From the IMG/VR virus record IMGVR_UViG_3300014911_000002, positions 25,380 through 89,379 of that record: a stretch of 64,000 bases of DNA. One strand, 5' to 3'. The translations under genes were made by a program, and so were the position numbers. Of this stretch, positions 19,168 through 41,918 are shown piece by piece. Under the pieces are notes generated by a model. The model had not been told where the DNA came from and made no database searches. It saw only the letters and a list, made by a program, of their open reading frames with translations. Every line of letters starts with the position of its first letter. Position 1 is the stretch's first letter. The DNA is from a virus.

Positions 19168-20135
19168 TTTCCCACGTGCATATCGAATTTATGGGAGTAT
19201 AATTTTATCTTTGGAGCTCCCATCTTTTCGGGTTTATATCGCCCTCTTTCTGCATATCCACCATATTCTAGGAAGAACCCAGTACCAACAAGAAGCTGTT
19301 TGATATTTTCTACTTCACCAGTTACGAAATTTGGACGCCTTTTTATTTGATCTTCGCCTATTATCGAATGGATATGCCCGCATAATATTATATCAACATC
19401 ATGAATCGCACCTAAATCCTCCAAAAGCTTTATCTTTGATGATTTTTTAACAGCAGCGCTATGTGGATGAATTGCATATATCGTATAGAACTGCTTACCA
19501 ACTTTTACTCCAATGTATCCCGCTTCACCCATATATGGGACATTCAGAGATAGGGCTAGAGTTTTTATTATATCAAAACCTTTATCTCTGTAAACCCAAA
19601 GCTCATGATTTCCGCTCAGTATTGCTATGATTTTTCCCGCATCAGCAAGTGGTCTCATCTTTTTATAAATCCATTCATATTGTTCTTGAGGCGTAATCTT
19701 AAGTGTAAACGTTGAACGTTCATTTGCGGATTCAATTAAATCTCCCATCAAAATAGTGTATACGCCATCATTTTCGAGAATGTATTTTATATAACCATCT
19801 AAGAGCTCTTCACTTCTTTCTGTGAACTCTGGGTTGCCATAATGAATATCGCCAAGTGGAACTAATACAACTCTCCCTTTCGCATCTGGTTTCAAATCAA
19901 CAACCACAAGATTTTTAGTTTCACGTTTAGGAACTGCAATGAGTTTTAAATATTTTCCGTTTTTGTCTATATCACCTGTTTCGTTAACTCGTCTGATTAT
20001 ATAGCCGAGCTTATTCAATTCGGAAATTCGTCCTCGTAAACCATCATAGGACATTTCTTTTGTGAACTCAGATATGGAATGGCTGTTGCCATCCATCAGG
20101 ATATCTATAATCTTCTTGTGTGTCGGTTTTAACAT
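19164..20135 (-). CDS. Winged-HTH plus calcineurin-like metallophosphoesterase
   Basis: N-terminal LRGRISELNKLGY HTH; GDIHYG, GDLIE, GNHE, GHIH. Confidence 0.82.
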   Translation of the reverse strand: MLKPTHKKIIDILMDGNSHSISEFTKEMSYDGLRGRISELNKLGYIIRRVNETGDIDKNGKYLKLIAVPKRETKNLVVVDLKPDAKGRVVLVPLGDIHYGNPEFTERSEELLDGYIKYILENDGVYTILMGDLIESANERSTFTLKITPQEQYEWIYKKMRPLADAGKIIAILSGNHELWVYRDKGFDIIKTLALSLNVPYMGEAGYIGVKVGKQFYTIYAIHPHSAAVKKSSKIKLLEDLGAIHDVDIILCGHIHSIIGEDQIKRRPNFVTGEVENIKQLLVGTGFFLEYGGYAERGRYKPEKMGAPKIKLYSHKFDMHVGK

Positions 20136-20139
20136 TTTA

Positions 20140-20397
20140 TCAACTCATCCATTTCTTTGCCCATATCCAGCCTTTTCCATCACAAAATTCACATATTATT
20201 TTCTTCTTTTCATCTGTTTTCATCCAACCCATTCCAAAGCATTCTGGACAGATGATTTTGACCATCGAATCATCGAGCTCATTCAATTTATCTATGGTGT
20301 TTTTAATTTCATGTTCGAGCTTCTTCAAATCGGATAACATTTCATTATGCTTCTCTTTTAGCGAATTTAATTTTGCTTCCAACTCTTCTTTATTCAT
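20140..20397 (-). CDS. Coiled-coil plus DnaJ-type zinc finger protein
   Basis: CPECFGMGW...CEFCDGKGW (CxxCxGxG x2). Confidence 0.7.
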   Translation of the reverse strand: MNKEELEAKLNSLKEKHNEMLSDLKKLEHEIKNTIDKLNELDDSMVKIICPECFGMGWMKTDEKKKIICEFCDGKGWIWAKKWMS

Positions 20398-21019
20398 TAA
20401 ATATCCTCCAAATATTTTTCGCTAGCTTTTTACCAAAACCCTTAACTCGCATGATATCTTCAACACTAGCATTTGCAATAGATTTTAGCGTCCCAAACTC
20501 ATCTAAAAGCATCTTTGCTCGTTTTATAGACATCCCTTCTATACAGGCAAGCATATTTTCTTTTCGTTCTTCTAATGTTACGGCCTTCCTCTGTACGAGC
20601 GTTGGTTTTGAAGAGGTTGCTTCAGCCGTTGATTTATTGTGAAGAAGGACAAGTACCTCAACAAATTCGTCTACACCTGATACAGTTATGACTGGAATAC
20701 CAAATTTATATGCTATTGTGGCAAGAGCACCAAAATATGATTTGTGAGCATATTTAGAATCACTAAAATAAAGAGTCTTCCATTTGTTTGGTTCTTCTAT
20801 TATTAAGATGGGGTGCTCATACTGACTTAAATTAGATAGCTGATACCATATTCTTCCGTTTTGTATTGACTGAACGAAATCGCTTGACTTCCGTTCGACT
20901 GCAATTCCATCGGGAAGAAGATAGTCGCCAACAGGCAATTGCCTACGCTGAACTTCTATTCCTCTAAGCATTAATAAATCTATTATTTCTTGTGGCTCTC
21001 TGGTGTCTGCAATTATCAT
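20390..21019 (-). CDS. ERCC4/XPF-family structure-specific nuclease with HhH
   Basis: ADTRE, GDY, VERKS, IIEE; C-terminal VKGFGKK HhH. Confidence 0.9.
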   Translation of the reverse strand: MIIADTREPQEIIDLLMLRGIEVQRRQLPVGDYLLPDGIAVERKSSDFVQSIQNGRIWYQLSNLSQYEHPILIIEEPNKWKTLYFSDSKYAHKSYFGALATIAYKFGIPVITVSGVDEFVEVLVLLHNKSTAEATSSKPTLVQRKAVTLEERKENMLACIEGMSIKRAKMLLDEFGTLKSIANASVEDIMRVKGFGKKLAKNIWRIFNE

Positions 21020-21127
21020 AAGGCTTGAAATATAAATGCGAAAAATAAAAGCATACAAAGAAATACCGAACTTATTACATACGACGAAACTATGCAGAGA
21101 CCGATAATTCCGAGAAGGAATAAAATT

Positions 21128-22183
21128 TTATTCATCGACAAACCCCAAATCCAAAGCCAATCTAACTGGATATTTTGCCCAATCTGTTTTCACATCTGGT
21201 CTTCGTACAAGCTGAACTCGCCTTGCTTCATCACCGAATTTTTCTTTGGCTTTTTTATCTGGCGGAAGAATTTGCAAAATATATTTCGAATGATAGATTA
21301 TGGCATCTCCACCGTATGGTCTCCCCAAGTCCCGCATGTTTGTTGGGTCTATCGACACATGATGAGTTATTACTGTGCATAGATTATATACCTTTGAGAG
21401 CTTTAGAAGTCTCCCATAAATTCTGTTGACTATTGAAGACCTTGCTGGTAGATTGAAGGTTTCATGTCCTATGCTTTCTTTCAAAGGAGTGGTCAAAGAA
21501 TCTATTGCGAGGAAAGTTGCATTTTCCAATTGTTTCCTAATGGGCATATCCTTCATTGGAAAGAATCTTACGGAATATTTCCCAGCCTTTTCAGAAAGTT
21601 CAAGTTGAACGTTATATCCGAAGAGTTTACACAATGCTTCAAGGGATTCCATAACTGGGTCATCCATCGTAGATATAAATATAAAGTGCTTTTTTATATC
21701 TTCATCCGAAACCTCATAGCGTTTTGCCAATTTATATGCTATTGACATAATATCTTTTCGCCTATTGCCTTCGGTATCGATGTATATAGAGTCCATGCCA
21801 GTCTTTTTGATATTTGCAACTGCAAGCATAACTGATAACCAAGTCTTACCAACCGATGGTAGCCCAGTGATTGCCGTTGGTATGCCGTAAGGGAAGCCAC
21901 CACCCATAAGCTCATCTATGGTAAGGCAACCTGTACGCAAATTTTCTAACTTATCACGCATATTTTTCAACCTCTCAAAATCAATATTGTTGAGAGCAAA
22001 CATAATGTGCTTACATGCAGACTTTTTAAATGTAAAGTATGGACATGAACACCAAGCATCTGCATATTCTCCATCAATGGAAACAACATACTCACGTCCA
22101 GAATCTGATTTTATAAGCAGGACTGCTATACCATTCAGACCATAAACTTTTTCCAGAATTTTCATAATATCGAATATTATCAC
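21128..22183 (-). CDS. SWIM zinc finger fused to RadA/RadB-like recombinase
   Basis: CSCPYF...CKHI SWIM; LRTGCLTIDELMGGG, GLPSVGKT Walker A, YIDTEG, AIDSL Walker B, PYGG. Confidence 0.85.
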   Translation of the reverse strand: MIIFDIMKILEKVYGLNGIAVLLIKSDSGREYVVSIDGEYADAWCSCPYFTFKKSACKHIMFALNNIDFERLKNMRDKLENLRTGCLTIDELMGGGFPYGIPTAITGLPSVGKTWLSVMLAVANIKKTGMDSIYIDTEGNRRKDIMSIAYKLAKRYEVSDEDIKKHFIFISTMDDPVMESLEALCKLFGYNVQLELSEKAGKYSVRFFPMKDMPIRKQLENATFLAIDSLTTPLKESIGHETFNLPARSSIVNRIYGRLLKLSKVYNLCTVITHHVSIDPTNMRDLGRPYGGDAIIYHSKYILQILPPDKKAKEKFGDEARRVQLVRRPDVKTDWAKYPVRLALDLGFVDE

Positions 22184-22204
22184 CTATTGGTATCTATTTC
22201 GAGA

Positions 22205-22435
22205 TTACCTAAGATATCGATATCTATATCTATGAAGGACATTTAGTGTCTTGTCTTCTTCTGCATCGCCTAGAACTTCGATTACTGAGATGTTATCTGT
22301 TAGATACCAACTTCCATTAATCTTTACATATTTCTTACTTGGCGAAATTTCTTCGATTACACCTTCTTGTATCGTAGAATATGGAAACTCTCTATAGAGA
22401 AATCGTTTACCAACCAACTCATCAGTTATCTCCAT
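22205..22435 (-). CDS. Hypothetical (SH3-like) protein
   Basis: 76 aa, GAGGT RBS. Confidence 0.5.
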   Translation of the reverse strand: MEITDELVGKRFLYREFPYSTIQEGVIEEISPSKKYVKINGSWYLTDNISVIEVLGDAEEDKTLNVLHRYRYRYLR

Positions 22436-22616
22436 TTACCTCCCCTTCCAAATCACCTTTCCGCCTAAACTTTCAATAACGCTTATACAATCATGCAGCA
22501 GTGAAGATGCTATCTTCTTTGATGCTTGCTTATCTTTTACACCCATCTTCTTCCTTAACATTTCGCTTGCTTTCTCCAATACTTTATCAGGTATCTCATT
22601 CATATTCTCACCGATT

Positions 22617-23516
22617 TCAGAGTATTGAAGAGATGGTGTTCAGAAAATCTTTTCCTAATTTTGTAGTTTTACCGCCCATATATCCAGCATGACCATCTAT
22701 TTCCATGAACGGGAAGATATTCAGTAGTTCTTTATAATAGTCAGCAAGGTCGCCTCTTATTGAGAGTTTTCCGTTCTTTTGGTTTACTGCAAGTATTGTT
22801 TTACCAGATGCGGAATTAAGAACACTAGCAATGTATCCAGTTAATCTAGCATCTGAAGTAAATAGAACAACAGTTATGTTTTCGAATTCGAGAACATCTG
22901 CATTTTTTAAAGCATTCTCAAATTCAAAATGCAAATCTTCTTTCGCTTTTACAGCTTCATTCGACATATAAATATCAAATGGCGTTTTCGATTCTGTTAT
23001 TAGTTTTAGAGCCTCATCATATTTATGAAGTCTCAGCAGAGCATTGATATATGATGAAAGAACTTTATACATCGGGATAGTATTTACCGACCATTTACCA
23101 TAAGACTGATATATCTTTGTATTGACACGTTTTAAAAGAGAAGGAAAGTCTCTGAATATCTCTGGTGGTATTAATTCTGGCTGTCCATCACCAACTAACC
23201 CAATGACAAGCTTCCAGCGTTCATTTTTCGGTATTTCGTCCAAAAACTGTCTATAAGCTATAAGAGATGCTGGCACATTATCCCAAATTAGCATATATTT
23301 TCTATTTGTTGGATGGTTTGGATGATGGTCTATCACCAATCCCTCAATAGACGGATTTAATGGTTTCATATCTGTCATTATGTCATCTTTTTGCCACTCT
23401 GGTGCATCGCCAAATTCTTCTGTTATCTTGATTCTTACGGCATCCTTTACATGAAAGGATGTGAAGTATGCTGAAGTTACTCCATCTGCATCGTGATGAC
23501 ACCAAATTGTCTTCAT
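22617..23516 (-). CDS. DHH-family phosphoesterase (RecJ/GAN-like exonuclease)
   Basis: HHDADG, TD, IDHH, GD, SIRG..DGH..MGG. Confidence 0.85.
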   Translation of the reverse strand: MKTIWCHHDADGVTSAYFTSFHVKDAVRIKITEEFGDAPEWQKDDIMTDMKPLNPSIEGLVIDHHPNHPTNRKYMLIWDNVPASLIAYRQFLDEIPKNERWKLVIGLVGDGQPELIPPEIFRDFPSLLKRVNTKIYQSYGKWSVNTIPMYKVLSSYINALLRLHKYDEALKLITESKTPFDIYMSNEAVKAKEDLHFEFENALKNADVLEFENITVVLFTSDARLTGYIASVLNSASGKTILAVNQKNGKLSIRGDLADYYKELLNIFPFMEIDGHAGYMGGKTTKLGKDFLNTISSIL

Positions 23517-24109
23517 AGTATAAATACCTTACCGCCTTCTATTTTAATTATTCCTTTCTTTTCCAACTCTGGAAGTATGGCGTCAACCAAATCAGCTCTT
23601 ATCGATGCCCTTATAGATATGACTTTCTTCAGGTCATTCGGATTTATTCCATCATTAACCAGTTCTGGCGTAAGTTCTTTGAATTTCTTTAGAGCATCTA
23701 TCACTTTATCCAAATCTATTTGAGGAGCAGATTCTCCGCTTGCTCCACCTAGATATTTTATATTGTATCGGAAGTTATCAAGGAATTCTATTTCCCATTT
23801 AGTGCCAGATATAGAATTTGGAGTTAAATTGTGTTGTTTTAGTGTTTTGAGGAATTCTCTCAAGAATGGATTTCTTCTTGAACCGAAAGAATATACCTTC
23901 GGTTCGCCATCAACTTTTGCTTTGGCTTCATATTTATCCCAGTCATTATTCCAGACATTCCCTAGAAAATCTACATCGCCTTTCTCAACCTTATAGATAT
24001 TTGTTTCAAATTCTACTGTCTTTTTTCCGTCTGCTGGTGTTTGAATAAAATATTTTGTCTGGCTCTTTAATATTTCATTCACATCTTCTGGAGTTATTTC
24101 TCTACCCAT
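23513..24109 (-). CDS. Putative ssDNA-binding protein (beta-rich domain plus C-terminal wHTH)
   Basis: Aromatic beta-rich N-domain, GGASG linker, wHTH-like LEKKGIIKIEGG; next to exonuclease and recombinase. Confidence 0.4.
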   Translation of the reverse strand: MGREITPEDVNEILKSQTKYFIQTPADGKKTVEFETNIYKVEKGDVDFLGNVWNNDWDKYEAKAKVDGEPKVYSFGSRRNPFLREFLKTLKQHNLTPNSISGTKWEIEFLDNFRYNIKYLGGASGESAPQIDLDKVIDALKKFKELTPELVNDGINPNDLKKVISIRASIRADLVDAILPELEKKGIIKIEGGKVFIL

Positions 24110-24579
24110 ATCTTATCACCCCTCTTTTTAGGCATATCCTTCCAATGATATTCCTCACAGAAGGACTTTATATCTTTAAATAGAGTTTCCACACGCTTTT
24201 TATCACAATAGAAAGCGTCAATCACACCACTAAAATCTACTTTTCTATTATCATGGTCTAATACCTCCATAACCACAGCAACGGCTAGTTCTTCGTTAGA
24301 ATAATGTGAATGCTTATCTTTCCACTCACCTATATCGTAAAGTTTGTCAATAATTGCTAGAGCCTCACGCCTATAATATATGTGTTTTGAGTATCCCAGC
24401 TTTGACAAAACATCCTTTGCAAGCAACTTTACATCTGTAGAGTGAGACCATTCATCTATATCCTCATCACGCTTAACAGACAATCGTTTCTTAAGTTCAC
24501 GCCTTAATTCTTTAAGAAACAACTTATACCGTCTTATGAGGAATCTTATCTCTTCTTCAGTTAAATCTTCGAATGTCAT
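24094..24579 (-). CDS. Possible TFB/cyclin-fold protein
   Basis: VLSKLG...ALAIIDKL...SNEELAVAVV...VDFSGVIDAF...VETLFKDI follows the TFIIB cyclin-repeat pattern. Confidence 0.4.
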   Translation of the reverse strand: MTFEDLTEEEIRFLIRRYKLFLKELRRELKKRLSVKRDEDIDEWSHSTDVKLLAKDVLSKLGYSKHIYYRREALAIIDKLYDIGEWKDKHSHYSNEELAVAVVMEVLDHDNRKVDFSGVIDAFYCDKKRVETLFKDIKSFCEEYHWKDMPKKRGDKIWVEK

Positions 24580-24935
24580 TTTGGCATCTCTTCAATCTCC
24601 TTATAGGAAACATCAGAATCACTTACAAGAATGGCAAAGCGTTTTTTTCGACCTAGTGGATATTCGATAATTATGTCATCGTAAGAAGGTGTGAAATAGA
24701 TGTCGGGCTCTATTAGATTTCCATGATGAAGTCTATGAAAATATTCTTCCTTTATCATGTTATATCGTTGTTTCATCTTTTGTATCTCAAGTTCGGATAC
24801 ATCTTTCTCCTTCTTTATCTCTTCCAAATCCTTCCTGTATTTCTGTATTAAGAATGCCAGAGATGATATACTCATATCAGCCAAGAGTGTATCAAACGAG
24901 TATTGACTTTTCCTTCCTTTAGTCACACACATCAC
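24576..24935 (-). CDS. Hypothetical protein
   Basis: 119 aa in coupled operon. Confidence 0.55.
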   Translation of the reverse strand: MMCVTKGRKSQYSFDTLLADMSISSLAFLIQKYRKDLEEIKKEKDVSELEIQKMKQRYNMIKEEYFHRLHHGNLIEPDIYFTPSYDDIIIEYPLGRKKRFAILVSDSDVSYKEIEEMPK

Positions 24936-25038
24936 CGCCTACCAAGACAACCGATTAGGTCGCCTTTGCCCAGTCTCTTCCTCCATTTAGTATATATAAA
25001 GGAAAGAAAACTATAAATAGTTTTTGGTTTGGTTTCGA

Positions 25039-25533
25039 CTACAAAACATTTCCTAAAAACAATATTGAATATCCATAATTTGAAATATATAAATCTGAAA
25101 CCACAAATGGTTGGGTTACGATTAGAAAAGGCTTCTTTTGAAGCCAAAACCCATCTTCTTCTCGCAATCTTGCGCTCCATAATATAGTCTCTAAAACTAT
25201 TCCATCAGGAGTCATTACAAAGTAGCTTCCCAACCTATCCATCACTATATCTATGTTCAGTTTGTTCAATATAATCTGAAATATAGTAATAAGCGATTCT
25301 TTAATCTCCTCAAAATCTGAATAAATGATAAGTGTATCATCCTTATCTATCGTTCCCACATCGATTTTCGGTTCGAGATAGATAGTCGCATATACATCGT
25401 TATAGCCTCGCCCAATAATTAATCGTGACTCTAATATCAAACCACTCTCTTCCTTTGAAAGTTTTATATATTCGGGACAGCCAAATACTGAATAAATTGC
25501 TCTTTTCATGATATCAACCCAAAAAGATAACAT
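25039..25533 (-). CDS. Hypothetical protein
   Basis: ORF in operon. Confidence 0.5.
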   Translation of the reverse strand: MLSFWVDIMKRAIYSVFGCPEYIKLSKEESGLILESRLIIGRGYNDVYATIYLEPKIDVGTIDKDDTLIIYSDFEEIKESLITIFQIILNKLNIDIVMDRLGSYFVMTPDGIVLETILWSARLREEDGFWLQKKPFLIVTQPFVVSDLYISNYGYSILFLGNVL

Positions 25534-25969
25534 TTATATTTTCTGCTTTGTTGCCTCTTTGCTGTGCTATAAATTTAATTGGCATAGAATAATTACCGAA
25601 GTTTGAAAAAGCTACTCCAAGCACAAGTGGTAATGCAAGAACACCATTCTCTTGCGATGAGCTTAAAATATGAACATGTTCTCGTTTGAAAAGCTTTATA
25701 TCCCTAACTATAACATCAAACCTTAAGGCACATTTAATCCCAACAATCCGCATCAATTTTTTAATATCTATATCCCGCACCCAAACTATCTCAAGGGGCT
25801 TATCACCCTCCAACGAACGCTTTGCAAACTCTCTATCGTATAAATAAATCCATTCGCCTTTAGGTTGAGATATGAAAAGAATGTTATTCGAAAGACCCAA
25901 CCGTGTCCTGATTTCTTTCCCAGCACAATAAACAGTTATATCCTTTTTCCAATATACATCCTCTGTCAT
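25514..25969 (-). CDS. Hypothetical protein
   Basis: 151 aa, ATGA coupling. Confidence 0.55.
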   Translation of the reverse strand: MTEDVYWKKDITVYCAGKEIRTRLGLSNNILFISQPKGEWIYLYDREFAKRSLEGDKPLEIVWVRDIDIKKLMRIVGIKCALRFDVIVRDIKLFKREHVHILSSSQENGVLALPLVLGVAFSNFGNYSMPIKFIAQQRGNKAENINVIFLG

Positions 25970-26574
25970 ACTATCTCCCTAAAATATTTTGAAGAATTCT
26001 CTTTTATTGGAAACGGGACGAATGATTTCCGAAGTGGCAGACCGTAAGAGTATTCTATTTGATATAATCCGATACCTTCAAGAGCTAATCCATTTAAATT
26101 CGAGGAATGTTCATCTATGACATCTATGACAGCAAAGAAACGAAATATATAAGTCAATAAGAGATTTGTTACTATTCTCCGAAGACCATCCCTTTCTTCT
26201 ACAAGGGAGATGCTACTCGATTCTTTTGAATAAATTTCCCCATCTGGTATAACGAAATGAACTGGGATATTTATTGAAGCTTTTGGTTGCAAATAAAAAT
26301 TAAAGAGTTTTAAAGAATCAGCTAAAACATCTTTCCTAGTTGGAGGTTTTATATTAGATAGGAAGGTTGAAGGAACAGACACGTAAGGTTCACCTAAACT
26401 ATCTTGGAATCCTAAATCAATTCGTGATAAATGAACCAAGCCTCCATTCTTCTTTCGTTCTATTACATCAAGGCGTCGTTCAAGGAAACCCGTAATGTCT
26501 CTTTTGTTTAAATTATATTTGAACTCTTTATCAAGAAGGATAATACGTTTGCTCCTAAATTGTCTCCAGAACAT
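25966..26574 (-). CDS. Hypothetical protein
   Basis: 202 aa in operon. Confidence 0.55.
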   Translation of the reverse strand: MFWRQFRSKRIILLDKEFKYNLNKRDITGFLERRLDVIERKKNGGLVHLSRIDLGFQDSLGEPYVSVPSTFLSNIKPPTRKDVLADSLKLFNFYLQPKASINIPVHFVIPDGEIYSKESSSISLVEERDGLRRIVTNLLLTYIFRFFAVIDVIDEHSSNLNGLALEGIGLYQIEYSYGLPLRKSFVPFPIKENSSKYFREIV

Positions 26575-26575
26575 A

Positions 26576-26809
26576 CTATCCCCGAATCAACGATTCTATA
26601 TATTCTTTTTTATGTTTAAGCTTTCCATAATCGATGATAAGAACATTTTCCTTTCCATATTTCTCAATAAAATCTTCAAGGAAACGAGGATGACCGTCAA
26701 TTTCTTTTGATAAAATATTATTTCCTTCTCGCAATCCAATATCATAATAGTATTTACCCTCTGGAATCACAAAAATCTTCAATCTCATCATCATGTCATC
26801 CCACCTCAA
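26576..26809 (-). CDS. Hypothetical protein
   Basis: 77 aa in operon. Confidence 0.5.
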   Translation of the reverse strand: MRWDDMMMRLKIFVIPEGKYYYDIGLREGNNILSKEIDGHPRFLEDFIEKYGKENVLIIDYGKLKHKKEYIESLIRG

Positions 26810-27309
26810 GGTTCTGGAATTCCTATCATCCGTTTAACCTCTTCAATTTCTGTCTCATCCAAAAATAACTCTAAAATTTCTTGCAATATGCTATTTTCGT
26901 GTGTCTCTTCTTTTTCCGCTTTAATGCCTTCAAGTAGGCGTTTAACCTTCGCTGGGGTCAAATATTTTTCTCCGAACTTCTTTATGTGCTTTGGGGCAAA
27001 TAGTTTAGACGAAAAATTGGGGCATCTTCTTCCATCGCAATAATAAACTATTAGCTTTTTCCCATTCTTCAAATCAAAGACATCATATAGTTTTGGGCAA
27101 TTATGGATGCTCTTTGCTGTGCAAAACGGATTCATTCGTATCGGGAGAGAACAGTGTCTTGCTGAACAACCGAGTAAGCTTCCAACGCAATAATCTTTAA
27201 ATGAACAATCATCTTTATCTATAATAACCCCAAACTTATATCCCATTTCATCATCTCCCTTCAGAATTGGCAACCCTGAATTCTTCCAATAGAGGCACGG
27301 AAATGGCAT
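26806..27309 (-). CDS. Cys-rich hypothetical protein
   Basis: Multiple Cys; likely start at MGYKF. Confidence 0.5.
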   Translation of the reverse strand: MPFPCLYWKNSGLPILKGDDEMGYKFGVIIDKDDCSFKDYCVGSLLGCSARHCSLPIRMNPFCTAKSIHNCPKLYDVFDLKNGKKLIVYYCDGRRCPNFSSKLFAPKHIKKFGEKYLTPAKVKRLLEGIKAEKEETHENSILQEILELFLDETEIEEVKRMIGIPEP

Positions 27310-27877
27310 CTAATGTCAGATTGTCATCTGTGAAGACATCTTCTGGTTTGCATTTATAAATTTTCTCGAAGGTTTTTCTTAAGAAGGATTCCAGCTTTTT
27401 AATATCTTTTACAGAAGCCAGAGCATCTATAATATAATAGCCATCATCAAGATTCCAATCTCTTAAAAATCTAATCACTAATGAAGACTCTGGATTTGCC
27501 CTAACATCCATTTTCTTATTAAGTCTTACTCGTCTCAGTAATTGAATATCCCGAGTTATAAAGGAATCTGCGATTGAAATATCAATTTGATTCTCTAAAA
27601 GGTAAATGAAGCCTAAAACATCAAGAATTCTTCCAGTTACATAAACATAAAGCATGTTATTCTCAAACGACGTTTTAACCTTTAGATTGGTGAGAATCTC
27701 ATAGTATCGTGTCAGTTTCAGCACTTGTTCATTATGACCTATAAATATTGTCATAACGGTGATTTCCTTCTGCAAATCAAAATTCAGATGATTCAAACGT
27801 TCTAATGTATGTTCGAGTGGGGTATTATCCAACCACACCTTTCTTTTATTTTGCAGAAATAACATTTCAATCACCAA
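27251..27877 (-). CDS. Hypothetical protein
   Basis: 208 aa, directly downstream of the amidotransferase. Confidence 0.55.
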   Translation of the reverse strand: MVIEMLFLQNKRKVWLDNTPLEHTLERLNHLNFDLQKEITVMTIFIGHNEQVLKLTRYYEILTNLKVKTSFENNMLYVYVTGRILDVLGFIYLLENQIDISIADSFITRDIQLLRRVRLNKKMDVRANPESSLVIRFLRDWNLDDGYYIIDALASVKDIKKLESFLRKTFEKIYKCKPEDVFTDDNLTLDAISVPLLEEFRVANSEGR

Positions 27878-34177: not shown

Positions 34178-34983
34178 TCTTCAACCTCTTTATATTCGGG
34201 AATAAATTTACGAACATAATCGTAATTATCTCGCATGAATGCGACGATTCCTCTAAACAGAATGTGTTGCCAATCATCCTGTTTCAAAATCTTAAAGAGG
34301 TTACCTTTTTCAGCGGTGTTATAAACAAAATCAAAGACCTTTAGATAATGCAAGTCCTTATCTGGTTGAGAGTTATATACTCTATCAGAGAGAAAATCCA
34401 TAAATTCGGGGTCGATACTTTCCTTCAGTCTCCGCATAATATGTGTGAATATAAAGCGTAATGTTTCGATATCCTTCTCGGTGAATGCATCTCTTACATC
34501 ATTCCCATCAATAAACTTAAACACTTCCCTAAATGCTTTTCTATTATCTGGATGGCATGAGATTATAAGAGCCAATCGCAGTAAGCCAGCAACTATTGAT
34601 ATTACAGCTGAATGTCTAGCCAAAACTCTCCATGGAATTTTAATTTTAGCACCGTAATCGAATATGGAGAAATCAATATCAGTTTCTCCAATAGCAGAAG
34701 CTATATAAGCTATTGGTAAAGATATAATTGCGATTTCAAAATCGTTTTTATTCTTCAAACGGTCTGGTAAACTAATAGACCAAGAACACTGCCTCGTAAT
34801 TATTAAATGACCGTAACCATTAAGTCTATTCTGTTTCAATCTTCTTCTTATAAATCGTATAGCACTTTGTTGTATTAGAACCTCTCTGCATCCAAAAGTT
34901 GCCACAAACTCCTCAAGGTTTTTAGGCACGGTTCTGTCTGATTCTATGGTAAAGCCAATTCCATCCCATCTCTTTAATCTCAT
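34174..34983 (-). CDS. Probable degenerate paralog of the COOH-NH2 ligase
   Basis: FGCREVL and VISIVAGLLRLAL...EVFKFIDGNDVRDAF resemble segments of 31869..32966; catalytic DPE/HIH motifs absent. Confidence 0.45.
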   Translation of the reverse strand: MRLKRWDGIGFTIESDRTVPKNLEEFVATFGCREVLIQQSAIRFIRRRLKQNRLNGYGHLIITRQCSWSISLPDRLKNKNDFEIAIISLPIAYIASAIGETDIDFSIFDYGAKIKIPWRVLARHSAVISIVAGLLRLALIISCHPDNRKAFREVFKFIDGNDVRDAFTEKDIETLRFIFTHIMRRLKESIDPEFMDFLSDRVYNSQPDKDLHYLKVFDFVYNTAEKGNLFKILKQDDWQHILFRGIVAFMRDNYDYVRKFIPEYKEVEE

Positions 34984-35004
34984 ATTTGCACCTCTTTCTT
35001 ATGA

Positions 35005-35490
35005 TTAAATCAATACAAAATATGCAGAACCTCCAGAGATATGGATATCTAGTTGTGGTTCTATAAAATGGATTTTATAGTCTTCTCCAATATAAAAATT
35101 AACTGCATGGCTTCTTCCGTCTAATGTTTTTACAAATGCTACTCCCAAAGCTATATGATAATGCCGAGTAACATTTCTCCAGAAGTCAAATGCAAAATCA
35201 TCGCAATCATATACCTCTTTAACATATTTATGTTCATTTGTCTTGTCGTATTCCATCAAAGCATTTATATCGTCTTTATTCACCAGATAATACCAATTAT
35301 CTATTATGACTATCATCGCCTGCGGAAAACCGTCTTCAAGAACATCCATTAGTTCCGTGAGGTATATTCGTTCCTTTAAATCTAATTTGGGTTTTTCTTC
35401 CAATTTCAGTGAAACTATACCTCTCCACCCGATTATCAATACCAAACCAAACAGAAACACCAAAACTTTTTTCCTTTTATTCATGGTCAT
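35005..35490 (-). CDS. Membrane-anchored papain/transglutaminase-like cysteine peptidase
   Basis: N-terminal TM; YDCDDFA (Cys), HAVN (His), IEPQ. Confidence 0.7.
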   Translation of the reverse strand: MTMNKRKKVLVFLFGLVLIIGWRGIVSLKLEEKPKLDLKERIYLTELMDVLEDGFPQAMIVIIDNWYYLVNKDDINALMEYDKTNEHKYVKEVYDCDDFAFDFWRNVTRHYHIALGVAFVKTLDGRSHAVNFYIGEDYKIHFIEPQLDIHISGGSAYFVLI

Positions 35491-35883
35491 ATCTCCTTCT
35501 TATTAATCAGAAGCAAAATCTTCAAGGTAGTCTTCTTCTTTTATCTCTTTCCAATCATATACATAATTTACTTTTGGGAGCATATTTCACCACCAATATC
35601 TCTACTTAATGTGGTCTAGTTAGAACCATCAAACCAATACCAACAAGCATTTCAGAAATATTATTGGTAAACACACCTATCAGCCAAACTATAGCTCCGA
35701 ATGTGCATAATGCATAATCCATAATTTTTTCTAATGAATTGTCGTCTGAATTCATACTTCCACAATCACCTTTTTCCTATCTCCATCTATATACCCATTC
35801 TTTTCTTCAAGAATCTGGCACATCTCTTTCAAGCTTAAGATTCCCCAATCGATTTCTAAAATCAAGATTCCACCCAATACATG

Positions 35884-36014
35884 CCTTTAAAACGCACAGA
35901 AATCAATTCTGGGACGAGTTTTTTCTTCACAAGTATATTACCATTCGGAAGCGAAAAAAATCGATTCTGGGGCGTTTTAGACACGTTTAAAGCGAAATTT
36001 TGAGGGTAGTTGAA
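35884..36014 (+). repeat. Dispersed ~130-bp palindromic element, copy 3
   Basis: GGGACGAGTTTTTT..CAAGTATATTACCATTCG...TAGACACGTTTAAAGCGAAATTTTGAGGG. Confidence 0.8.
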
Positions 36015-36067
36015 CCTGCTTTTCTCTCCATCTCGATTTCTATTGCTATCCAGATGTATTTATTCCC

Positions 36068-36298
36068 CTATTTCCCCCTAATCACATAGATAAGCTCTTT
36101 CCCATCCTTGCATATCGCAATCAAATGAATATTTAAGTTAGAAATTGCCAACGCTATAACATTCTCTTCTTGAATTTTCCTTCTAAATTCCTCATCATCT
36201 TCACATTCAATTATCCGTTTTGGCTTTTTAAACCTGTAATAAGACTTCCAATCATTTGTTTTTGCCAAAATCTTCCCAATTCTTACCATTATCATCAC
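36068..36298 (-). CDS. Hypothetical protein
   Basis: 76 aa. Confidence 0.5.
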   Translation of the reverse strand: MMIMVRIGKILAKTNDWKSYYRFKKPKRIIECEDDEEFRRKIQEENVIALAISNLNIHLIAICKDGKELIYVIRGK

Positions 36299-36324
36299 TA
36301 CTTTTGACTATTTCCCTTTCTCCA

Positions 36325-36636
36325 TCAATCGCCAAAAAATCTCATTTCGCTTAACAGGTAATTATGAAGGCGTTTTAACGAAACTTCGGTATGAATTTTC
36401 TTATGGTCTTTTCTTTCAAGAGGAATAAGATTACCAACGTTATTATTAAATGGATTCAAATCCCTATGGTGAACTTCGTAATTCTCTGGAAGTTTTGAAA
36501 AGAGGCGTTCATAAACGAATCTTGCAAGGCTTTTAGTGATATAATGAGAGAAGCGGGTTTTTCTTACATAAATTCTACCATTACTTGGCTTGATTAAAAG
36601 TTCAACCTCACCGAGAGAAATGAATTCATCATCCAT
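36325..36636 (-). CDS. HNH endonuclease
   Basis: EVHHRDLNPFNNNVGNL....DHKKIH. Confidence 0.85.
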   Translation of the reverse strand: MDDEFISLGEVELLIKPSNGRIYVRKTRFSHYITKSLARFVYERLFSKLPENYEVHHRDLNPFNNNVGNLIPLERKDHKKIHTEVSLKRLHNYLLSEMRFFGD

Positions 36637-36651
36637 CTTTCCCCTCTTTTC

Positions 36652-36996
36652 CTATGGAATTACGAATGTAGAAGCCAAGAGGCGTATAAATCCTATTGAA
36701 AATAAAAGCCAAGCCCAGATTTTGTCTTCCCTATACGCAATCATACTAAAGATGAGATAAAGGAATGAACCGATGATATAGACAATTGGAAATTTAATCA
36801 ATAGGAAATAGGAAAGTGGAATTAAGGTCATGACCGTCAGGGTGAATAATATCACATGGAATAATTTGATTTTTTCTTTACCATGAATAATGCGAGATAA
36901 TTCCAAACCAGAGAAGGAAACCTGAAGAATCATCACGGTAATATCGCAAATAAGCATCCCAAATCCATAAACTAGATATGTGGCTAAATCCAGCAT
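36652..36996 (-). CDS. Multi-TM membrane protein
   Basis: About 4 hydrophobic segments; GGTGA RBS. Confidence 0.6.
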   Translation of the reverse strand: MLDLATYLVYGFGMLICDITVMILQVSFSGLELSRIIHGKEKIKLFHVILFTLTVMTLIPLSYFLLIKFPIVYIIGSFLYLIFSMIAYREDKIWAWLLFSIGFIRLLASTFVIP

Positions 36997-37174
36997 TTTT
37001 TCACCATTTAACTAATTAAGTTGCCTCATCATAGACTAATTCTTCACCACATTCTGGGCAAACTCTATCTTTTAATTGATTTGGAAAGTATTCTTTGCCA
37101 CACCGCCTACAATACCAAATTCCAATTATGGGCTCGCCTTCTATCATCTCATCATGTATTCAGAGAAGTTAATT

Positions 37175-37384
37175 CTATTCTTTCTTTAATTGCCGTTTTG
37201 CTTCTTTTAGGAATTTAATTACTTCTTTTAGCTTTGTCTTATCCGAGAAATAACAAGCAGGGCAGAACAGACAAACCTTTGTGATTTTTGGGATTCTGGA
37301 TTCCAGACTCGGATTCATCTCACAGATTTTAGGGCTAATTTCCTTCTTTAACAGACAAAATTCTTCTTCTATTGTATCTACCAT
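37175..37384 (-). CDS. Small Cys-containing protein
   Basis: CLFCPAC. Confidence 0.5.
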   Translation of the reverse strand: MVDTIEEEFCLLKKEISPKICEMNPSLESRIPKITKVCLFCPACYFSDKTKLKEVIKFLKEAKRQLKKE

Positions 37385-37461
37385 CTTATCACAAAATCCA
37401 ATTACGAATTTTATGCCCGTTTTAACTTTTTCCTAAATTAAAAAAAATAAGAGCGGTGGGA

Positions 37462-37767
37462 TTATAGCTTAAATAATTGCTTTGCTATCTGCTCTGTCAA
37501 ACCAATTGCAGATTTTACTATTCTTCCTCTCTCGGGGTGCTCGATAATTTTTCTTAATGTGTAAACTGTTCTCCTGCCATTCGGTGATATTGATTTCGAT
37601 TTCACCAATTCTATAATTGTGTTGTCGCCTGTCTTAAATTCCTTCAGCACCTTTTCATCGAAATATATTGTCTTCCTACCGACGCTTATTGGCAATTTCC
37701 CCATCTCTGTTACCACGAACATTCTTCCGCCCTCTATTACTATTTCTCCCAATTTTCCATTTCCCAT
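37462..37767 (-). CDS. Hypothetical protein (start MGNGK)
   Basis: AGGAGGTG RBS just upstream of ATG 37767; T-rich run downstream. Confidence 0.65.
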   Translation of the reverse strand: MGNGKLGEIVIEGGRMFVVTEMGKLPISVGRKTIYFDEKVLKEFKTGDNTIIELVKSKSISPNGRRTVYTLRKIIEHPERGRIVKSAIGLTEQIAKQLFKL

Positions 37768-37780
37768 ACATACACCTCCT

Positions 37781-37843
37781 TCTGCCCCACTCTTCAGGTG
37801 GAGCAGATAAGGAATGGTGGGATTCGAACCCAATTCCATTCCC
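37781..37843 (-). ncRNA. tRNA-like element: acceptor/T-arm minihelix plus anticodon-like hairpin
   Basis: GGGAATG-GAA-TTGGG-TTCGAAT-CCCAC-CATTCCT followed by TCTGCTCCAC-CTGAAGA-GTGGGGCAGA. Confidence 0.5.
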
Positions 37844-37861
37844 TGATTGAATTTTAATCCT

Positions 37862-37897
37862 AAAAAAATAAAAAATGGGAGAGGAGAAACCTCTCCC
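37862..37897 (-). terminator. Hairpin plus oligo-T terminator
   Basis: GGGAGAGG-TTTCT-CCTCTCCC then ATTTTTTATTTTTTT on minus strand. Confidence 0.7.
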
Positions 37898-38195
37898 TAA
37901 AGCTATCGGGTTCATTTGAATTACTAATTACGATTGCCTTTTGAATTTATGTATATTGTTTACTGATACTATTCCCTACCACCAATTAGGCAATAGGGAA
38001 TAGAGAGGATTTCGTGTTCTATGCTGGGCAACCCCAAACCCAGCAGGGGAATTAGAAATCCTCTAAAAGATTCCCCATCGTATTTTATCTCAATCCCAAA
38101 TCAAAAAATTGACTTGGGATTTCATCGAAGGGATTTAATTCAATAATTTAAATCGTGAGGAAAGGCAATAAATTTTTGTTTTGCCCCTCCTCAAC
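37870..38195 (-). ncRNA. Candidate ~320-nt multi-hairpin non-coding RNA
   Basis: Five or more stems between its own TATA-like promoter (38220-38235) and terminator (37862-37897); no credible ORF. Confidence 0.5.
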
Positions 38196-38219
38196 CAAAA
38201 CGCAACCACAACCGAAACC

Positions 38220-38235
38220 TTTAAAAACCTTTTGG
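38220..38235 (-). promoter_or_regulatory. BRE-TATA-like promoter (CCAAAAGGTTTTTAAA)
   Basis: Purine-rich BRE followed by TTTTTAAA about 25-28 nt upstream of the first hairpin. Confidence 0.5.
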
Positions 38236-38323
38236 TGGGTTTTCTCCTGTTGGACACCCAAAAATGTCGGGCAAAAAGCCGAATTTAAAATTAAAAATCA
38301 AAAAATAGAGGGGAAAGGAGGAA

Positions 38324-39091
38324 TTAATATCCTTCAAGTTTCACTTGATTATTTAGGAATTCATAGAATTTCTTTCTGTCGATTTCTGTTTTATCCATTA
38401 CTTTGAATGGAAGCTTCACCATAGAACCATCGGGAAGCCTAATTCTAAATCTCTCCACGAGAGGAATATCCATATTTAAGGCATATCTTCCAGAGGTCAA
38501 TTCCTTTATTAATTCCTCGAGGTATTCAATTGGGTATTTCGGAAATCCAAAGTAATCAAGTAATTTAGGATTGCCAGCTTCTTCTTCCGCTTTTATCCAT
38601 CGCAACATAGCCACAATTGTTCTTCCTTTAATTAGGAGCATTCCGTTTTTCCTTCTCCAGAATTCTTTACCCTTCTGATAGGTAATTCCTTGAGCATTTA
38701 AGAATTCTTTAACCACTCTGGAAGCGAACCAGCGATTAATCATAGATTTACCTTTGTATTTAATTGGAACAATTACATGCCTCTCTACACCGCCACCTGT
38801 TCTAATTTCATTTACATGGGTATATTCTTCAATTGCACCGAAATGCCTTTTCTCCCGTCTGTCGTTATCCACATAGGAAATATTTGTAATTCCGCCAACC
38901 TTTTCAATTGGGGTTTTTTGAGTATAGGCAATTTTAATTGTTCTAATATGCTGTGCCGAATTTAATGAATTTATTATGTCGCACACCTCTTCCTTTCCTG
39001 AAATTACACAAAATCCTGTCTTCAAGCACTCGAAATTACATGGGGATTGAAATTCCTCTGGCTTCCATACTTTAATTCTCTCTAAATACAT
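38324..39091 (-). CDS. Hypothetical early protein
   Basis: 255 aa, GGAGG RBS, T-rich terminator downstream. Confidence 0.7.
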   Translation of the reverse strand: MYLERIKVWKPEEFQSPCNFECLKTGFCVISGKEEVCDIINSLNSAQHIRTIKIAYTQKTPIEKVGGITNISYVDNDRREKRHFGAIEEYTHVNEIRTGGGVERHVIVPIKYKGKSMINRWFASRVVKEFLNAQGITYQKGKEFWRRKNGMLLIKGRTIVAMLRWIKAEEEAGNPKLLDYFGFPKYPIEYLEELIKELTSGRYALNMDIPLVERFRIRLPDGSMVKLPFKVMDKTEIDRKKFYEFLNNQVKLEGY

Positions 39092-39227
39092 CCTCCTTCC
39101 ACCTCCAATTAGGAAATTATGCTTCCTCTTGAGGTTTTCATAGATTCATACCAAATTCTGTGATAGACACCTGCCTCATCCAATTCGTCTTTAATTTCCT
39201 CCTTCTTCCTCCTTCCCATGCTCTCAC

Positions 39228-39695
39228 CTATAGGATTAATAAATTTTCTTCCATTACTAATTTCCCATCTCTTTTAATTGGCATGCTAATTATGCAGGGT
39301 TGGGCTTGGCATGTTGCTAATCTATGATTGCTCCTAATTGCCAGATATATGCCTTTCAATTGTTTTAATTCGTTTTCGAGGCATCCAGCTACAAAGAATT
39401 TCGTTAAATCCCATCGCCTCTTTTCCAATTCGGGTTTTAATTCCTCGATAATCTCATCTGCGATTCTTTCAATTTCCTCTGGAGTCAATTCTTTTGATTT
39501 CGGTTTCCGTTTCATGCGGGTTTTAATTATATAGATTGCCTTTATACCTCTTTCGAACAATTCTTCAATTAGGTTTGGTGTGTCTGTGCCAATTTTCCTA
39601 TAGATTTTCATTAGAATTGGGTGTCGTTGGAGTATTTTGCCATATTCGGAATTCCACTTGCCTTCATCCAATTCAAATATTTTCTTTCCGCTCAT
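39228..39695 (-). CDS. Hypothetical early protein (probably leaderless, start MSGKK)
   Basis: ATG 39695 lies about 23 nt downstream of the TATA box. Confidence 0.65.
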   Translation of the reverse strand: MSGKKIFELDEGKWNSEYGKILQRHPILMKIYRKIGTDTPNLIEELFERGIKAIYIIKTRMKRKPKSKELTPEEIERIADEIIEELKPELEKRRWDLTKFFVAGCLENELKQLKGIYLAIRSNHRLATCQAQPCIISMPIKRDGKLVMEENLLIL

Positions 39696-39718
39696 GGTAG
39701 GATATGTGTTGCTCATGC

Positions 39719-39735
39719 TTTATATACTTTTCGCC
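39719..39735 (-). promoter_or_regulatory. Strong archaeal early promoter GGCGAAAAGTATATAAA
   Basis: BRE plus TATA; identical 17-mer at 40666-40682. Confidence 0.8.
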
Positions 39736-40114
39736 ATGTCGAATTAGAATAAAACGAATTCCTATGTGAACAAAACGTTATATCGTTATAGAACCCAAGC
39801 CAATTACGAATCTAAATCGCCCATTTAAACATATATAGAATTCTAGAATTCAAAGAAATCAAGGATTATGGAATAGATTTAAGGTTTATAGAGAAGGTAG
39901 GAAAGGAGAGGAAGAATTAAAAAGATTAAAAAAGAAGGGAGAGAGGTTTAGAGAAGGGAATTAAAGGAATTGTTGGGTTCTTGGTTTTGGAATTTGATTA
40001 AGTCATTCATATATTCAATCCCGTTACCCTGAATTATTTTTTATTCTTTTCCTGCTCTAACCACTTTTTAAATTCTTTCCATTCCTTTTCATCCATTATC
40101 ATTTCTCTCTCACC

Positions 40115-40333
40115 TCACAATTCAAAGAAATTTGTATCCTCAAGGTGCATGAATAAGAATATATTTGGCTCTCCATTCCTGAAATTTACTAATCCAGCCA
40201 TGAATGTTGTTTCGAGATGCCTAATTCTATAACAGAGGAATTTGTAGGCATCGGGAATTTTCTTTGATTTCTCGAATTCGTATAATTTCCACCCACCTGC
40301 TGATTTCAAATATTCTCGCAATTTTTCTATCAT
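40115..40333 (-). CDS. Hypothetical early protein
   Basis: 72 aa coupled to upstream gene. Confidence 0.55.
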   Translation of the reverse strand: MIEKLREYLKSAGGWKLYEFEKSKKIPDAYKFLCYRIRHLETTFMAGLVNFRNGEPNIFLFMHLEDTNFFEL

Positions 40334-40633
40334 TTATTCCACCTTCCTGCACAATTCCTGAATTTCGACTTCCTCAATATAATTGGTTTCCTCATCGAGA
40401 TACAGAATTCCTAGAAATTCCTTTCCGTCTTTTGCAATTTCCACGATTGCTCTATTTAATTTCGGGTCAATTCCTATTATTATCATTCCATCGGCTGTCT
40501 CAAAGAATTCTCTTATAATTTCTTCCTGCTCGGCTTCCACAATTTCCTTTATTCTGGCATAGGTAATTTCTAATTGGTTTATTCTCTGCTCTGTCGTTTG
40601 CCTCGCACCTTCCGACTTAATTTCCAATTCCAT
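40334..40633 (-). CDS. Hypothetical acidic early protein
   Basis: 99 aa, GGTGA RBS, downstream of promoter 40666-40682. Confidence 0.65.
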   Translation of the reverse strand: MELEIKSEGARQTTEQRINQLEITYARIKEIVEAEQEEIIREFFETADGMIIIGIDPKLNRAIVEIAKDGKEFLGILYLDEETNYIEEVEIQELCRKVE

Positions 40634-40665
40634 TCCCTATCACCAAGATGGCATAAGCATAGAGG

Positions 40666-40682
40666 TTTATATACTTTTCGCC
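40666..40682 (-). promoter_or_regulatory. Strong archaeal early promoter GGCGAAAAGTATATAAA
   Basis: Exact repeat of 39719-39735. Confidence 0.8.
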
Positions 40683-40744
40683 TCTCACAATTCCAATTAG
40701 GCAATTCTCGGGATGCACCAATTGAAAATCCAGAAATGCCCGTA

Positions 40745-40868
40745 TTAGGCTCATACGTGGACGTAGAGACGAGTTTGATTCTCACTAATACTCTACCATT
40801 CGGAATTAAAAAAAATCGCTCTACGGCGACGATAGACGCCTTTAAATTGAAATTTCGAGGGTATCCCA
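40745..40868 (+). repeat. Dispersed ~130-bp palindromic element, copy 4
   Basis: CGTAGAGACGAGTTT...TACCATTCG...CTCTACG...TAGACGCCTTTAAATTGAAATTTCGAGGG. Confidence 0.8.
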
Positions 40869-41010
40869 ACCCCCCCAATTACGAATTTGCCAAGCCGATT
40901 TGAATACGCCATAGAATTCTGAATTCCAAATATGAATCTGAATTCGCCATTTTGCGTATATAATTAATTGAGAATTGGAATTGGGCGAGGAAGTGAATTC
41001 ATGAGAATTA

Positions 41011-41045
41011 GAGAAAGGGTTACCTTCGGTAAACCGAGAGTTACC
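41011..41045. repeat. Left arm of inverted repeat pair (partner 41919-41952)
   Basis: GAGAAAGGGTTACCTTCGGT (41011-41030) is the exact reverse complement of 41933-41952. Confidence 0.85.
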
Positions 41046-41239
41046 TATTCATCGAGAAAATTCTATAAAAGGAGAGCGATAAAAATCGCCAAATAAAAAA
41101 AAATTACAAATCTCTTAAGATAAGCTCTAATTCCTTCTTAATCTCATCTCGTGTCATGCTATCGAGAAAGGTTATTAGTTTGAAGATTCTCATCCTTGTA
41201 TCCATATTATCACCCAAATAAAATAAAAAGAGGAAGATA

Positions 41240-41644
41240 TCACTCTTCCTCTTTAACCAATTCTTTTAGTATTGAAAGAAGTTCTTTTTTGGTCATGTTC
41301 TCTAACTTTCTTTTTCCTTTGAATTGGTTTATAATCGTTGCTTCTTTTTGTATTCCATACTTCTTTAGTATCTCCCAATTTTCCTTAAGCACTTTGCCCA
41401 ATTTCTCCTTTTCTATCTCCTTGTATATCTTTCCAAGTATTTTAGCTTGGTTTTTATCAAAGGGTTTAACAAGTGTCTTACTTGGGGGTATCCTAAAAAT
41501 CCACCCACCGTTTAGGGGGTAGATTTTCAGATACCCTCTAAATCTTTCTATTTTTGATATATTTCCAGATAGCTCTATGGTTGCTATCGGTGTGTCGGTG
41601 TCGTTGCTAGCTCCTACCTTTTGGGTTTGGGTTGTCTTACTCAT
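41240..41644 (-). CDS. Hypothetical Lys-rich protein (probably leaderless)
   Basis: 134 aa; GCAAAAGCTTTATAAA TATA box about 22 nt upstream. Confidence 0.65.
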   Translation of the reverse strand: MSKTTQTQKVGASNDTDTPIATIELSGNISKIERFRGYLKIYPLNGGWIFRIPPSKTLVKPFDKNQAKILGKIYKEIEKEKLGKVLKENWEILKKYGIQKEATIINQFKGKRKLENMTKKELLSILKELVKEEE

Positions 41645-41666
41645 GATTGAGAGAATATATTGTGGG

Positions 41667-41721
41667 TTTATAAAGCTTTTGCAACCTTCTGGCTTAACTC
41701 GGTAAAAGTTCTGGCTTAACT
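41667..41721 (-). promoter_or_regulatory. BRE-TATA promoter with two upstream direct repeats TTCTGGCTTAACT
   Basis: 13-mer at 41687-41699 and 41709-41721 (22-bp period) adjacent to the BRE. Confidence 0.65.
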
Positions 41722-41918
41722 ATATGAATCATCTCACTTGACAGCTTAAAAAGTTAAGGCATCGGCTTAAAAAATTAAGCTTCGATAATCGAGATGTCTG
41801 TAAACGTCTAATATTGAAAAATAAACTTTCAAAATTGAATAGTTAAGATCTCGGCTTTCCATAAAATTCAAAATTATAATTCTCCCAAGATAAATTTGTT
41901 CCATGCAGTCTATATGGA

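Follow-up and report, generated by a model that had tools for sequence, protein, structure and literature searches.

Why does about one quarter of a virus genome lack a set of short palindromic words that the rest of the same genome keeps? The question is raised by a 64,000-nt stretch of DNA (hereafter the window), which comprises positions 25,380-89,379 of the 89,379-bp single-contig virus record IMGVR_UViG_3300014911_000002 (IMG/VR); coordinates are those of the window unless marked as genome. Between the GATC at 19,349 and the following one at 41,847 there are 22,497 bp (19,350-41,846) without a single copy, and five further palindromes (CCGG, GGCC, GTAC, GCGC and CGCG) are absent or nearly absent from the same place. 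The zone consists of early genes adjoining the packaging genes. The loss acts on the DNA, is palindrome-specific and is made at synonymous sites, and we consider it reasonably likely that it represents restriction avoidance concentrated on the early arm, probably the first part of the genome to enter the cell.

The borders differ from word to word. CCGG is found at 17,249 and then not until 42,227, GGCC at 20,582 and then not until 43,353, GTAC at 21,933 and then not until 42,302, and CGCG at 17,649 and then not until 42,018; the only copies of GCGC within 19,350-41,846 lie at 19,456 and 25,172. These exact positions agree with the gaps that an earlier sequence-only reading had claimed for GATC, CCGG, GGCC and GTAC, and its remark that TGCA, AGCT, TCGA and CTAG persist is borne out by the counts (75, 70, 77 and 30 in the zone), all of which, together with that of CATG, are at or near expectation. 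Expectations were obtained from mononucleotide, Markov, rest-of-genome and codon-shuffle models. In 19,350-41,846, GATC was observed 0 times (70.7 expected by the mononucleotide and 75.3 by the Markov model), CCGG 0 times (20.8 and 20.2), CGCG 0 times (20.8 and 12.2), GGCC once (20.8 and 26.3), GCGC twice (20.8 and 15.3) and GTAC four times (70.7 and 22.2). Across sequence models about 39-75 copies of GATC would be expected, and 53 by codon shuffle. Comparison of observed with expected counts, which the sequence-only reading had named as its check, thus puts the sites far below expectation in the zone and confines the depletion to one zone of the genome: no other is present in the whole 89,379 bp, where the next longest GATC gap measures 3,066 bp. 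The density of the six words (GATC, CCGG, GGCC, GTAC, GCGC and CGCG) along the genome is given in Table 1.

Longer words are purged as well. The zone contains no CCWGG (13.4 expected by the mononucleotide model; 62 in the rest of the genome), no GGWCC (13.4; 47) and no CATATG (7.3; 32), two copies each of GCWGC (13.4; 105), GTSAC (25.1; 44) and ATGCAT (7.3; 40), and nine of CTNAG (70.7; 162). When all 136 four-letter words were ranked by depletion in the zone relative to the rest of the genome, the six words were among the nine most depleted, and the most depleted five-letter words were either the same six extended by a letter or halves of CCWGG, GGWCC, GCWGC, CTNAG and GTSAC. The longest gaps of the 13 word classes are co-located: they start 0.1-1.6 kb (ATGCAT: 9.0 kb) upstream of terL, the gene for the large terminase subunit, end 10-26 kb upstream of it, and span 9-44 sites' worth at the density found elsewhere. 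The proposal of host Type II restriction-modification systems with 4-bp sites, made in the earlier reading, therefore captures the restriction-like signature but is too narrow, as 5- and 6-bp words are purged too. In the rest of the genome the same words are present at 0.5-1.8 of expectation, and since CCWGG (1.09), GGCC (0.88) and GCWGC (1.84) are kept there, the rest of the genome is not under this selection.

One way to account for such a gap would be the composition or the coding content of the zone. Synonymous codons of 38 minus-strand open reading frames (ORFs) were shuffled 300 times, which gave 53.3 +/- 5.3 copies of GATC (minimum 38) against 2 observed, both of them in ORFs that overhang the zone edges. 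Shuffled means likewise exceeded the observed counts for CCGG (16.8 vs 0), GGCC (15.1 vs 1), GTAC (27.9 vs 5), GCGC (14.5 vs 2), CGCG (10.9 vs 0) and CTNAG (43.4 vs 9), whereas the control words were unmoved (AGCT, 65 observed vs 62.7 shuffled; TGCA, 73 vs 66.6; CATG, 48 vs 51.2). Since shuffling restores the words, the proteins and their codon usage do not explain the loss, and it is codon context that has been selected. Asymmetric halves are lost in both orientations (CCAGG/CCTGG, GGACC/GGTCC and GCAGC/GCTGC), and among the component trimers GAT, ATC, CCG and GCC in the zone are within about 15% of their level in the left arm, with GTA, CGG and GGC about 26-27% lower. Strand symmetry and these small trimer changes, set against near-total loss of the words, indicate that duplex DNA, rather than messenger RNA, is constrained; avoidance at the RNA level is ruled out by the symmetry.

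Chance, base composition, coding constraint, constraint on RNA and chimeric assembly, taken together, are accordingly hardly credible as explanations. The zone is slightly more AT-rich than its surroundings, as a compositional origin would have it, but the counts refute such an origin under all four models. A chimeric assembly is ruled out by a contig of the source run that bridges the outer edge (37,803-48,014) at a flat depth of 41.8, and by a strain 90-99% identical in two other runs, which is collinear except for a replaced stretch at 41,087-41,614; depth and bridging were read from assembled Logan contigs of the source run and of other runs. In runs X2, X3 and X5 the match of a contig to the window breaks off at 33,767, beyond which its sequence is unlike that of the window and holds two GATC within 30 bases; a second X2 contig passes through this position without a break.

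Palindromes as such are not avoided. AGCT, TCGA and TGCA stand at expectation, AAGCTT, CAATTG, TTCGAA and ATCGAT are at or above it, and GAATTC is enriched, which rules out a general avoidance. GAATTC numbers 28 in the zone (7.3 expected) and 41 in the rest of the genome (22.1 expected). The non-palindromic pair CAATG/CATTG is about 3.5-fold depleted in the zone (13 copies, where the rest of the genome would predict 45) and may belong to the recognition site of a Type IIS or Type III enzyme.

A different origin would be mosaicism, the arm having come from another lineage under heavier restriction, so that the pattern would record history and not present exposure. The GC content of about 35% in the zone, compared with 37-40% in the flanks, would fit such an import, as would the lack of close relatives of the zone proteins in scans of viral contigs and metagenome contigs and the state of the nearest relative, L002, which is 73% identical in the late genes and hardly alignable in the arm. 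By megablast against a phage collection, no cultured kin of the zone was found. The tetranucleotide signature is nevertheless not foreign: when the six purged words are excluded, r between either zone half and the parts outside the zone is 0.60-0.79, compared with 0.69-0.77 among those parts themselves. An element of about 130 bp, partly palindromic and scattered over the genome, further ties the zone to the remainder. It is present in four copies (3,236-3,375; 13,580-13,712; 35,888-36,020; 40,732-40,850), of which those outside the zone carry CGCG/GGCC and both copies inside it have other letters there, so that a genome-wide repeat has been purged only in its in-zone copies. An imported arm would, moreover, still have been purged as an arm somewhere.

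The comparison with relatives bears on the same question. An alignment of 25 terminases yielded 80 IMG/VR loci, to which four loci from genome collections were added, and the comparison of arms took in all loci that extend at least 7.8 kb upstream of terL (20 IMG/VR loci and L119, 21 in all; L063 was left out as a near-copy of L062). A palindromic 4-mer was counted when at least 4-fold depleted upstream relative to downstream of terL at p<1e-3. At least one such word was found in the window and in 14 of the 21 relatives (15 of 22 genomes). The upstream matches comprise 46 from the 16 palindromic words and 20 from the 120 non-palindromic words, several of the latter being halves of 5-bp palindromes; in the reverse direction 4 palindromic and 57 non-palindromic matches, mostly of GC-rich words, were obtained. 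The word lists differ between lineages. AT-rich relatives purge AGCT, CTAG, GTAC, GATC and CATG, and G001 purges GCGC, GTAC, GGCC, GCWGC and GGWCC and leaves GATC untouched. Whole records of G001, G002, G004, G005, G008 and G009 show zones of about 10-35 kb that abut the spacer upstream of terL, each with its own word list, and within one record the length of the purge differs word by word. Purging of the same arm in 14 of 21 relatives, with other words, argues against a one-off mosaic, an explanation that we regard as improbable.

Shielding outside the arm also appears to vary. In L001, L002 and L003, the nearest kin of this virus, whose terL is 87-90% identical, GATC occurs once in 13.2 kb, 0 times in 7.4 kb and 0 times in 5.2 kb, late genes included, whereas 47 copies are present in the late arm of this virus; its near-absence from the late genes of these three implies that the shielding of GATC differs between sister lineages.

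The zone is the promoter-proximal part of a minus-strand arm that leads leftward from 41.6 kb, and its outer edge, in the divergent spacer before the terminase genes, is sharp (Table 1). All 38 ORFs chosen in the zone are on the minus strand, and GC skew stays below zero between about 17.5 and 67.2 kb (genome coordinates). From about 42.4 kb a plus-strand arm encodes a 187-aa protein, the large terminase, Alba, portal, protease and major head protein, placing the late, structural genes on the strand opposite to the early arm. The first early gene starts at 41,644, and the adjoining 200 bp of the spacer are site-free; beyond them lie GATC at 41,847, GCGC/CGCG at 42,017-42,018 and then seven sites within 90 bp at a GC-rich hairpin. 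At the inner edge (17.3-21.9 kb) each word stops at its own place; this region is gene-dense, its nearest gap being 345 bp at 17,498-17,843, and contains no repeat cluster. The GGCTTAAC-type repeats and the block of about 37 nt in the spacer are candidate regulator or terminase sites, and an Rfam scan of 40,500-43,000 gave chance-level matches only. The 187-aa gene, which has no family match, is a candidate small terminase.

Table 1 Segments and features of the window, with densities of the six words and gene content.
Feature	Position	Strand	Remarks
25 kb preceding the window			six-word density 7.1 per kb
Left flank	1-17,249		six-word density 6.7 per kb
Graded inner edge	17250..21933		17 sites of the six words, 3.6 per kb, about half the flank density
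Core site-free zone	21934..41846		1 site (GCGC at 25,172) in 19.9 kb, 0.05 per kb
Right flank	41,847-64,000		six-word density 7.45 per kb
Sole DNA methyltransferase, N6/N4 type	1017..2465	-	outside the zone
Inner-edge genes	19164..22183	-	Mre11-like phosphoesterase, ERCC4-(HhH)2 nuclease, Rad51/RadA-like ATPase with SWIM finger
Amidoligase-type cluster	27871..34983	-	two class-II glutamine amidotransferase-like genes, two GCS2/COOH-NH2 ligase-like genes, one ATP-grasp gene
Acidic 99-aa early protein	40334..40633	-	isoelectric point 4.4; near the outer edge
Divergent spacer	41645..42359		holds the sharp outer edge
GGCTTAAC-type direct repeats	41,687-41,780		upstream of the first early gene; also in L002
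Palindromic element	41,911-41,958		in the spacer
Block of about 37 nt	~42,000-42,036		conserved in the window, L001 and L002; carries the first GCGC/CGCG
TATA-like boxes	~42,097-42,200		in the spacer
GC-rich hairpin	42,286-42,338		dense with sites
Conserved 187-aa gene upstream of terL	42360..42923	+	found by tblastn in 57 of loci L001-L082
Large terminase subunit (terL)	43468..44913	+
Alba-family gene	44945-45193	+	between terL and portal; Pfam E 5.7e-14
902-aa head-module protein	47230-49938	+	metallo-beta-lactamase-fold and ATP-dependent DNA ligase domains

A signature that is palindrome-specific, strand-symmetric, synonymous and lineage-specific supports selection by Type II restriction enzymes. 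In the reading that we favour, the early-gene arm of a tailed virus would have been rewritten, mostly at synonymous positions, and the words removed would be those recognised by at least a dozen Type II systems met in the host population. The arm would be exposed to active enzymes before the virus can disable them, and selection would act on this arm alone because that exposure precedes the point at which the enzymes can be switched off. In tailed phages the order of packaging generally sets the order of ejection. The most likely reason for the exposure would be that the arm is leading DNA: packaging would start beside the terminase genes and run into the late arm, and the purged arm would be packaged last, next to the terminase-proximal end, and be ejected first. 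The arm would have to remain uncut for its early genes to be expressed, one or more of which would then shield the remaining genome, and the graded inner edge would mirror a falling risk as entry and early expression proceed. Something must shield the rest of the genome and not the arm, since the rest keeps the same words, and because only one DNA methyltransferase is encoded, self-methylation cannot cover 13 word classes. Under this scheme a fixed genome end would lie near 41.85-42.1 kb. Of what the sequence-only reading had proposed, restriction avoidance by the early arm is well supported; first entry, and an end near 42 kb, are what we infer.

The site-free first-step-transfer block of phages T5 and BF23 reportedly goes back to Davison and Brunel (1979). 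T5-like phages are restricted only through sites in this first-step-transfer DNA (PMC10644984), and the likeness to Tequintavirus is close in that a bounded, first-expressed block is site-free and the rest keeps its sites, shielded by early functions (PMC10644984). Unlike in T5, the block here measures 20-25 kb, or about 25% of the genome compared with about 8%, and no large, repeat-rich non-coding stop region is present at the inner edge. The virus families are also unrelated, terL being at most 28% identical to that of any cultured phage (distant matches only), and PHROG scans of 20 zone proteins named no T5 pre-early family; in T5, DNA transfer in two steps depends on the pre-early proteins A1 and A2. 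A T5-like long terminal repeat was considered and rejected: depth in the source run was 40.1 for a contig wholly in the zone, 41.8 for the bridging contig and 45.6 in the late arm, and because depth is not doubled in the zone, the zone is not such a repeat; nor does the assembly contain a second copy.

Other systems offer partial parallels. Among T7-like phages (Autographiviridae), Murciavirus is restricted by the Type I system Mme2I only via motifs in its first-injected region, and selection there is described as sub-genomic and concentrated on the first-injected segment (PMC12455610); that case concerns one Type I motif and is experimental, whereas 13 Type II-like words are at issue here, read from sequence. 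As with the early genes of T7, the genes of the arm all point away from the proposed end. Late genes, unlike in a T7-type genome, run opposite to the early arm, and transcription could therefore not pull in the whole genome. T7-type phages encode an early anti-restriction protein, an Ocr-like DNA mimic, at the leading end; the arm described here encodes near its outer edge an acidic 99-aa protein, a candidate DNA mimic by charge alone, for which family scans gave no match and the fold model was unusable (predicted local distance difference test score, pLDDT, 56). Under-representation of Type II palindromes is a recognized anti-restriction strategy of prokaryotic viruses (PMC6286503), treated there, in the text as available, for whole genomes ('region' appears once, 'early' and 'local' nowhere); in contrast to genome-wide avoidance, the loss described here is near-absolute in one arm and weak or absent elsewhere. 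Conjugative plasmids, too, are stated to have a leading region depleted in restriction targets (PMC12455610). The likeness lies in first-entering DNA that is purged and, in plasmids, carries anti-defence genes; the difference is that a plasmid, another kind of element, enters as single-stranded DNA. The principle is thus already known, and what is new is the large scale, the family-wide comparison and the probably archaeal host domain. In open-access main texts we found no description of a regional purge in archaeal or uncultured viruses.

Several observations weigh against ordered entry or limit its generality. The record ends overlap by 127 bp, giving a circular assembly (IMG/VR labels them direct terminal repeats), source-run contigs pass over the proposed end with no change in depth, and no physical end was observed. 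The record of G001, rated 98% complete, is broken not at the edge of the purged arm but 2.1 kb within it. Headful packaging with random ends would leave entry order unable to explain a regional purge, and selection on a first-injected segment would indeed not apply to headful packaging (PMC12455610). Seven of the 21 relatives (L030, L036, L041, L043, L046, L061 and L119) show no palindrome depletion in the 5.3-7.5 kb compared in them, and among whole records G006 is weak and G003 not assessable. Some relatives may be close kin, so that the 14 are not all independent lineages. Labels from metagenome-assembled genomes among the relatives, which bear on the host and hence on its restriction enzymes, conflict (Thermoplasmata, Saccharibacteria, Actinomycetota, Methanomicrobia). 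Finally, no anti-restriction gene was recognized in PHROG scans of 20 zone proteins, 17 of which had no match; the exceptions include the amidoligase-type cluster.

The ends of relatives' contigs are equivocal on this point. Among 17 long contigs (at least 36 kb), seven stop no more than 4.1 kb short of the conserved gene that precedes terL, three of them within 400 bp. Variation between strains in the early arm might break assemblies at this place just as well. Counted over all contigs, distances between contig end and conserved gene number 7, 5, 6, 5, 3, 5 and 2 per 700 bp, a smooth decay with no sharp cluster; enrichment is confined to the long contigs.

Regional purging could also arise if entry were not ordered at all. 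The whole genome would enter, cuts in the late region would be tolerated or repaired once early functions (recombinase, nucleases, ligase) are made, and a cut in the early arm would be fatal to those functions. Genes for Rad51-like, ERCC4-HhH2 and Mre11-like proteins exactly at the inner edge, a ligase domain in the 902-aa head-module protein and a preprint that reportedly deals with ligase-dependent repair of nuclease cuts in PhiKMV-type phages would all suit this alternative. The remaining 67 kb, however, carry 130 GATC alone, and many fragments would form before any repair protein is made; the repair genes are distal within the arm and would be expected to be expressed late in it. We know of no phage that survives Type II restriction by repair at such site numbers, and rate this alternative as rather unlikely. 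The 902-aa protein itself might, from its domains, be a virion-associated repair or end-processing enzyme.

Differential modification would shift the asymmetry to the virion DNA, which would be covalently protected outside the arm by methyl, sugar or other groups and unprotected within it. Several glycosyltransferases, one PAPS-reductase-domain protein and the N6/N4 methyltransferase are indeed encoded outside the zone. One methyltransferase, however, cannot cover 13 word classes, and the genome encodes no methyltransferase of the C5 or Dam type. To our knowledge, no mechanism confines a base modification linked to replication to only three quarters of a genome, and we give this explanation little credence.

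Avoidance of restriction by an early, probably first-entering arm would have consequences beyond this genome. An archaeal host is suggested by the Alba gene, by the genes of Rad51 type and ERCC4-HhH2 type, and by the inteins that terminases of relatives carry. We tentatively envisage an uncultured, probably archaeal family of head-tailed viruses with genomes of about 50-155 kb, in which DNA delivery may be ordered, slow or staged and a leading arm of 10-35 kb may be proofed against the lineage's own list of up to 13 words and encode a broad Type II neutraliser for the rest of the genome. If so, the purge lists would reveal which restriction systems uncultured hosts possess, and the purge would be a marker of the entering genome end that needs no more than sequence. 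It would indicate where the genome end and the first-expressed genes are located. The roughly 35 uncharacterised early genes should then include a broad inhibitor of Type II restriction; we are aware of no protein that inhibits Type II enzymes in general. An Atlas search with the first early protein returned no usable match. The words purged in each lineage should match the restriction enzymes of its host and so aid host assignment, in a field where genome entry and anti-restriction of archaeal-type tailed viruses are essentially unstudied.

Two further features were noted in the relatives. In G005 (about 117.5-122.5 kb, 5 kb) and G009 (about 20-27.5 kb, 7.5 kb), both with terL on the plus strand, a strongly CATG-enriched block lies between the purged arm and terL, with 24-31 CATG per 2.5 kb compared with about 5; CGCG is also present, together with TCGA in G005, and the block may be a repeat array. 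Several of the related terminases (P0025, P0039, P0044 and P0053), 800-836 aa in length, contain intein or homing-endonuclease domains (PF14528, PF14890, PF05203 and PF05204).

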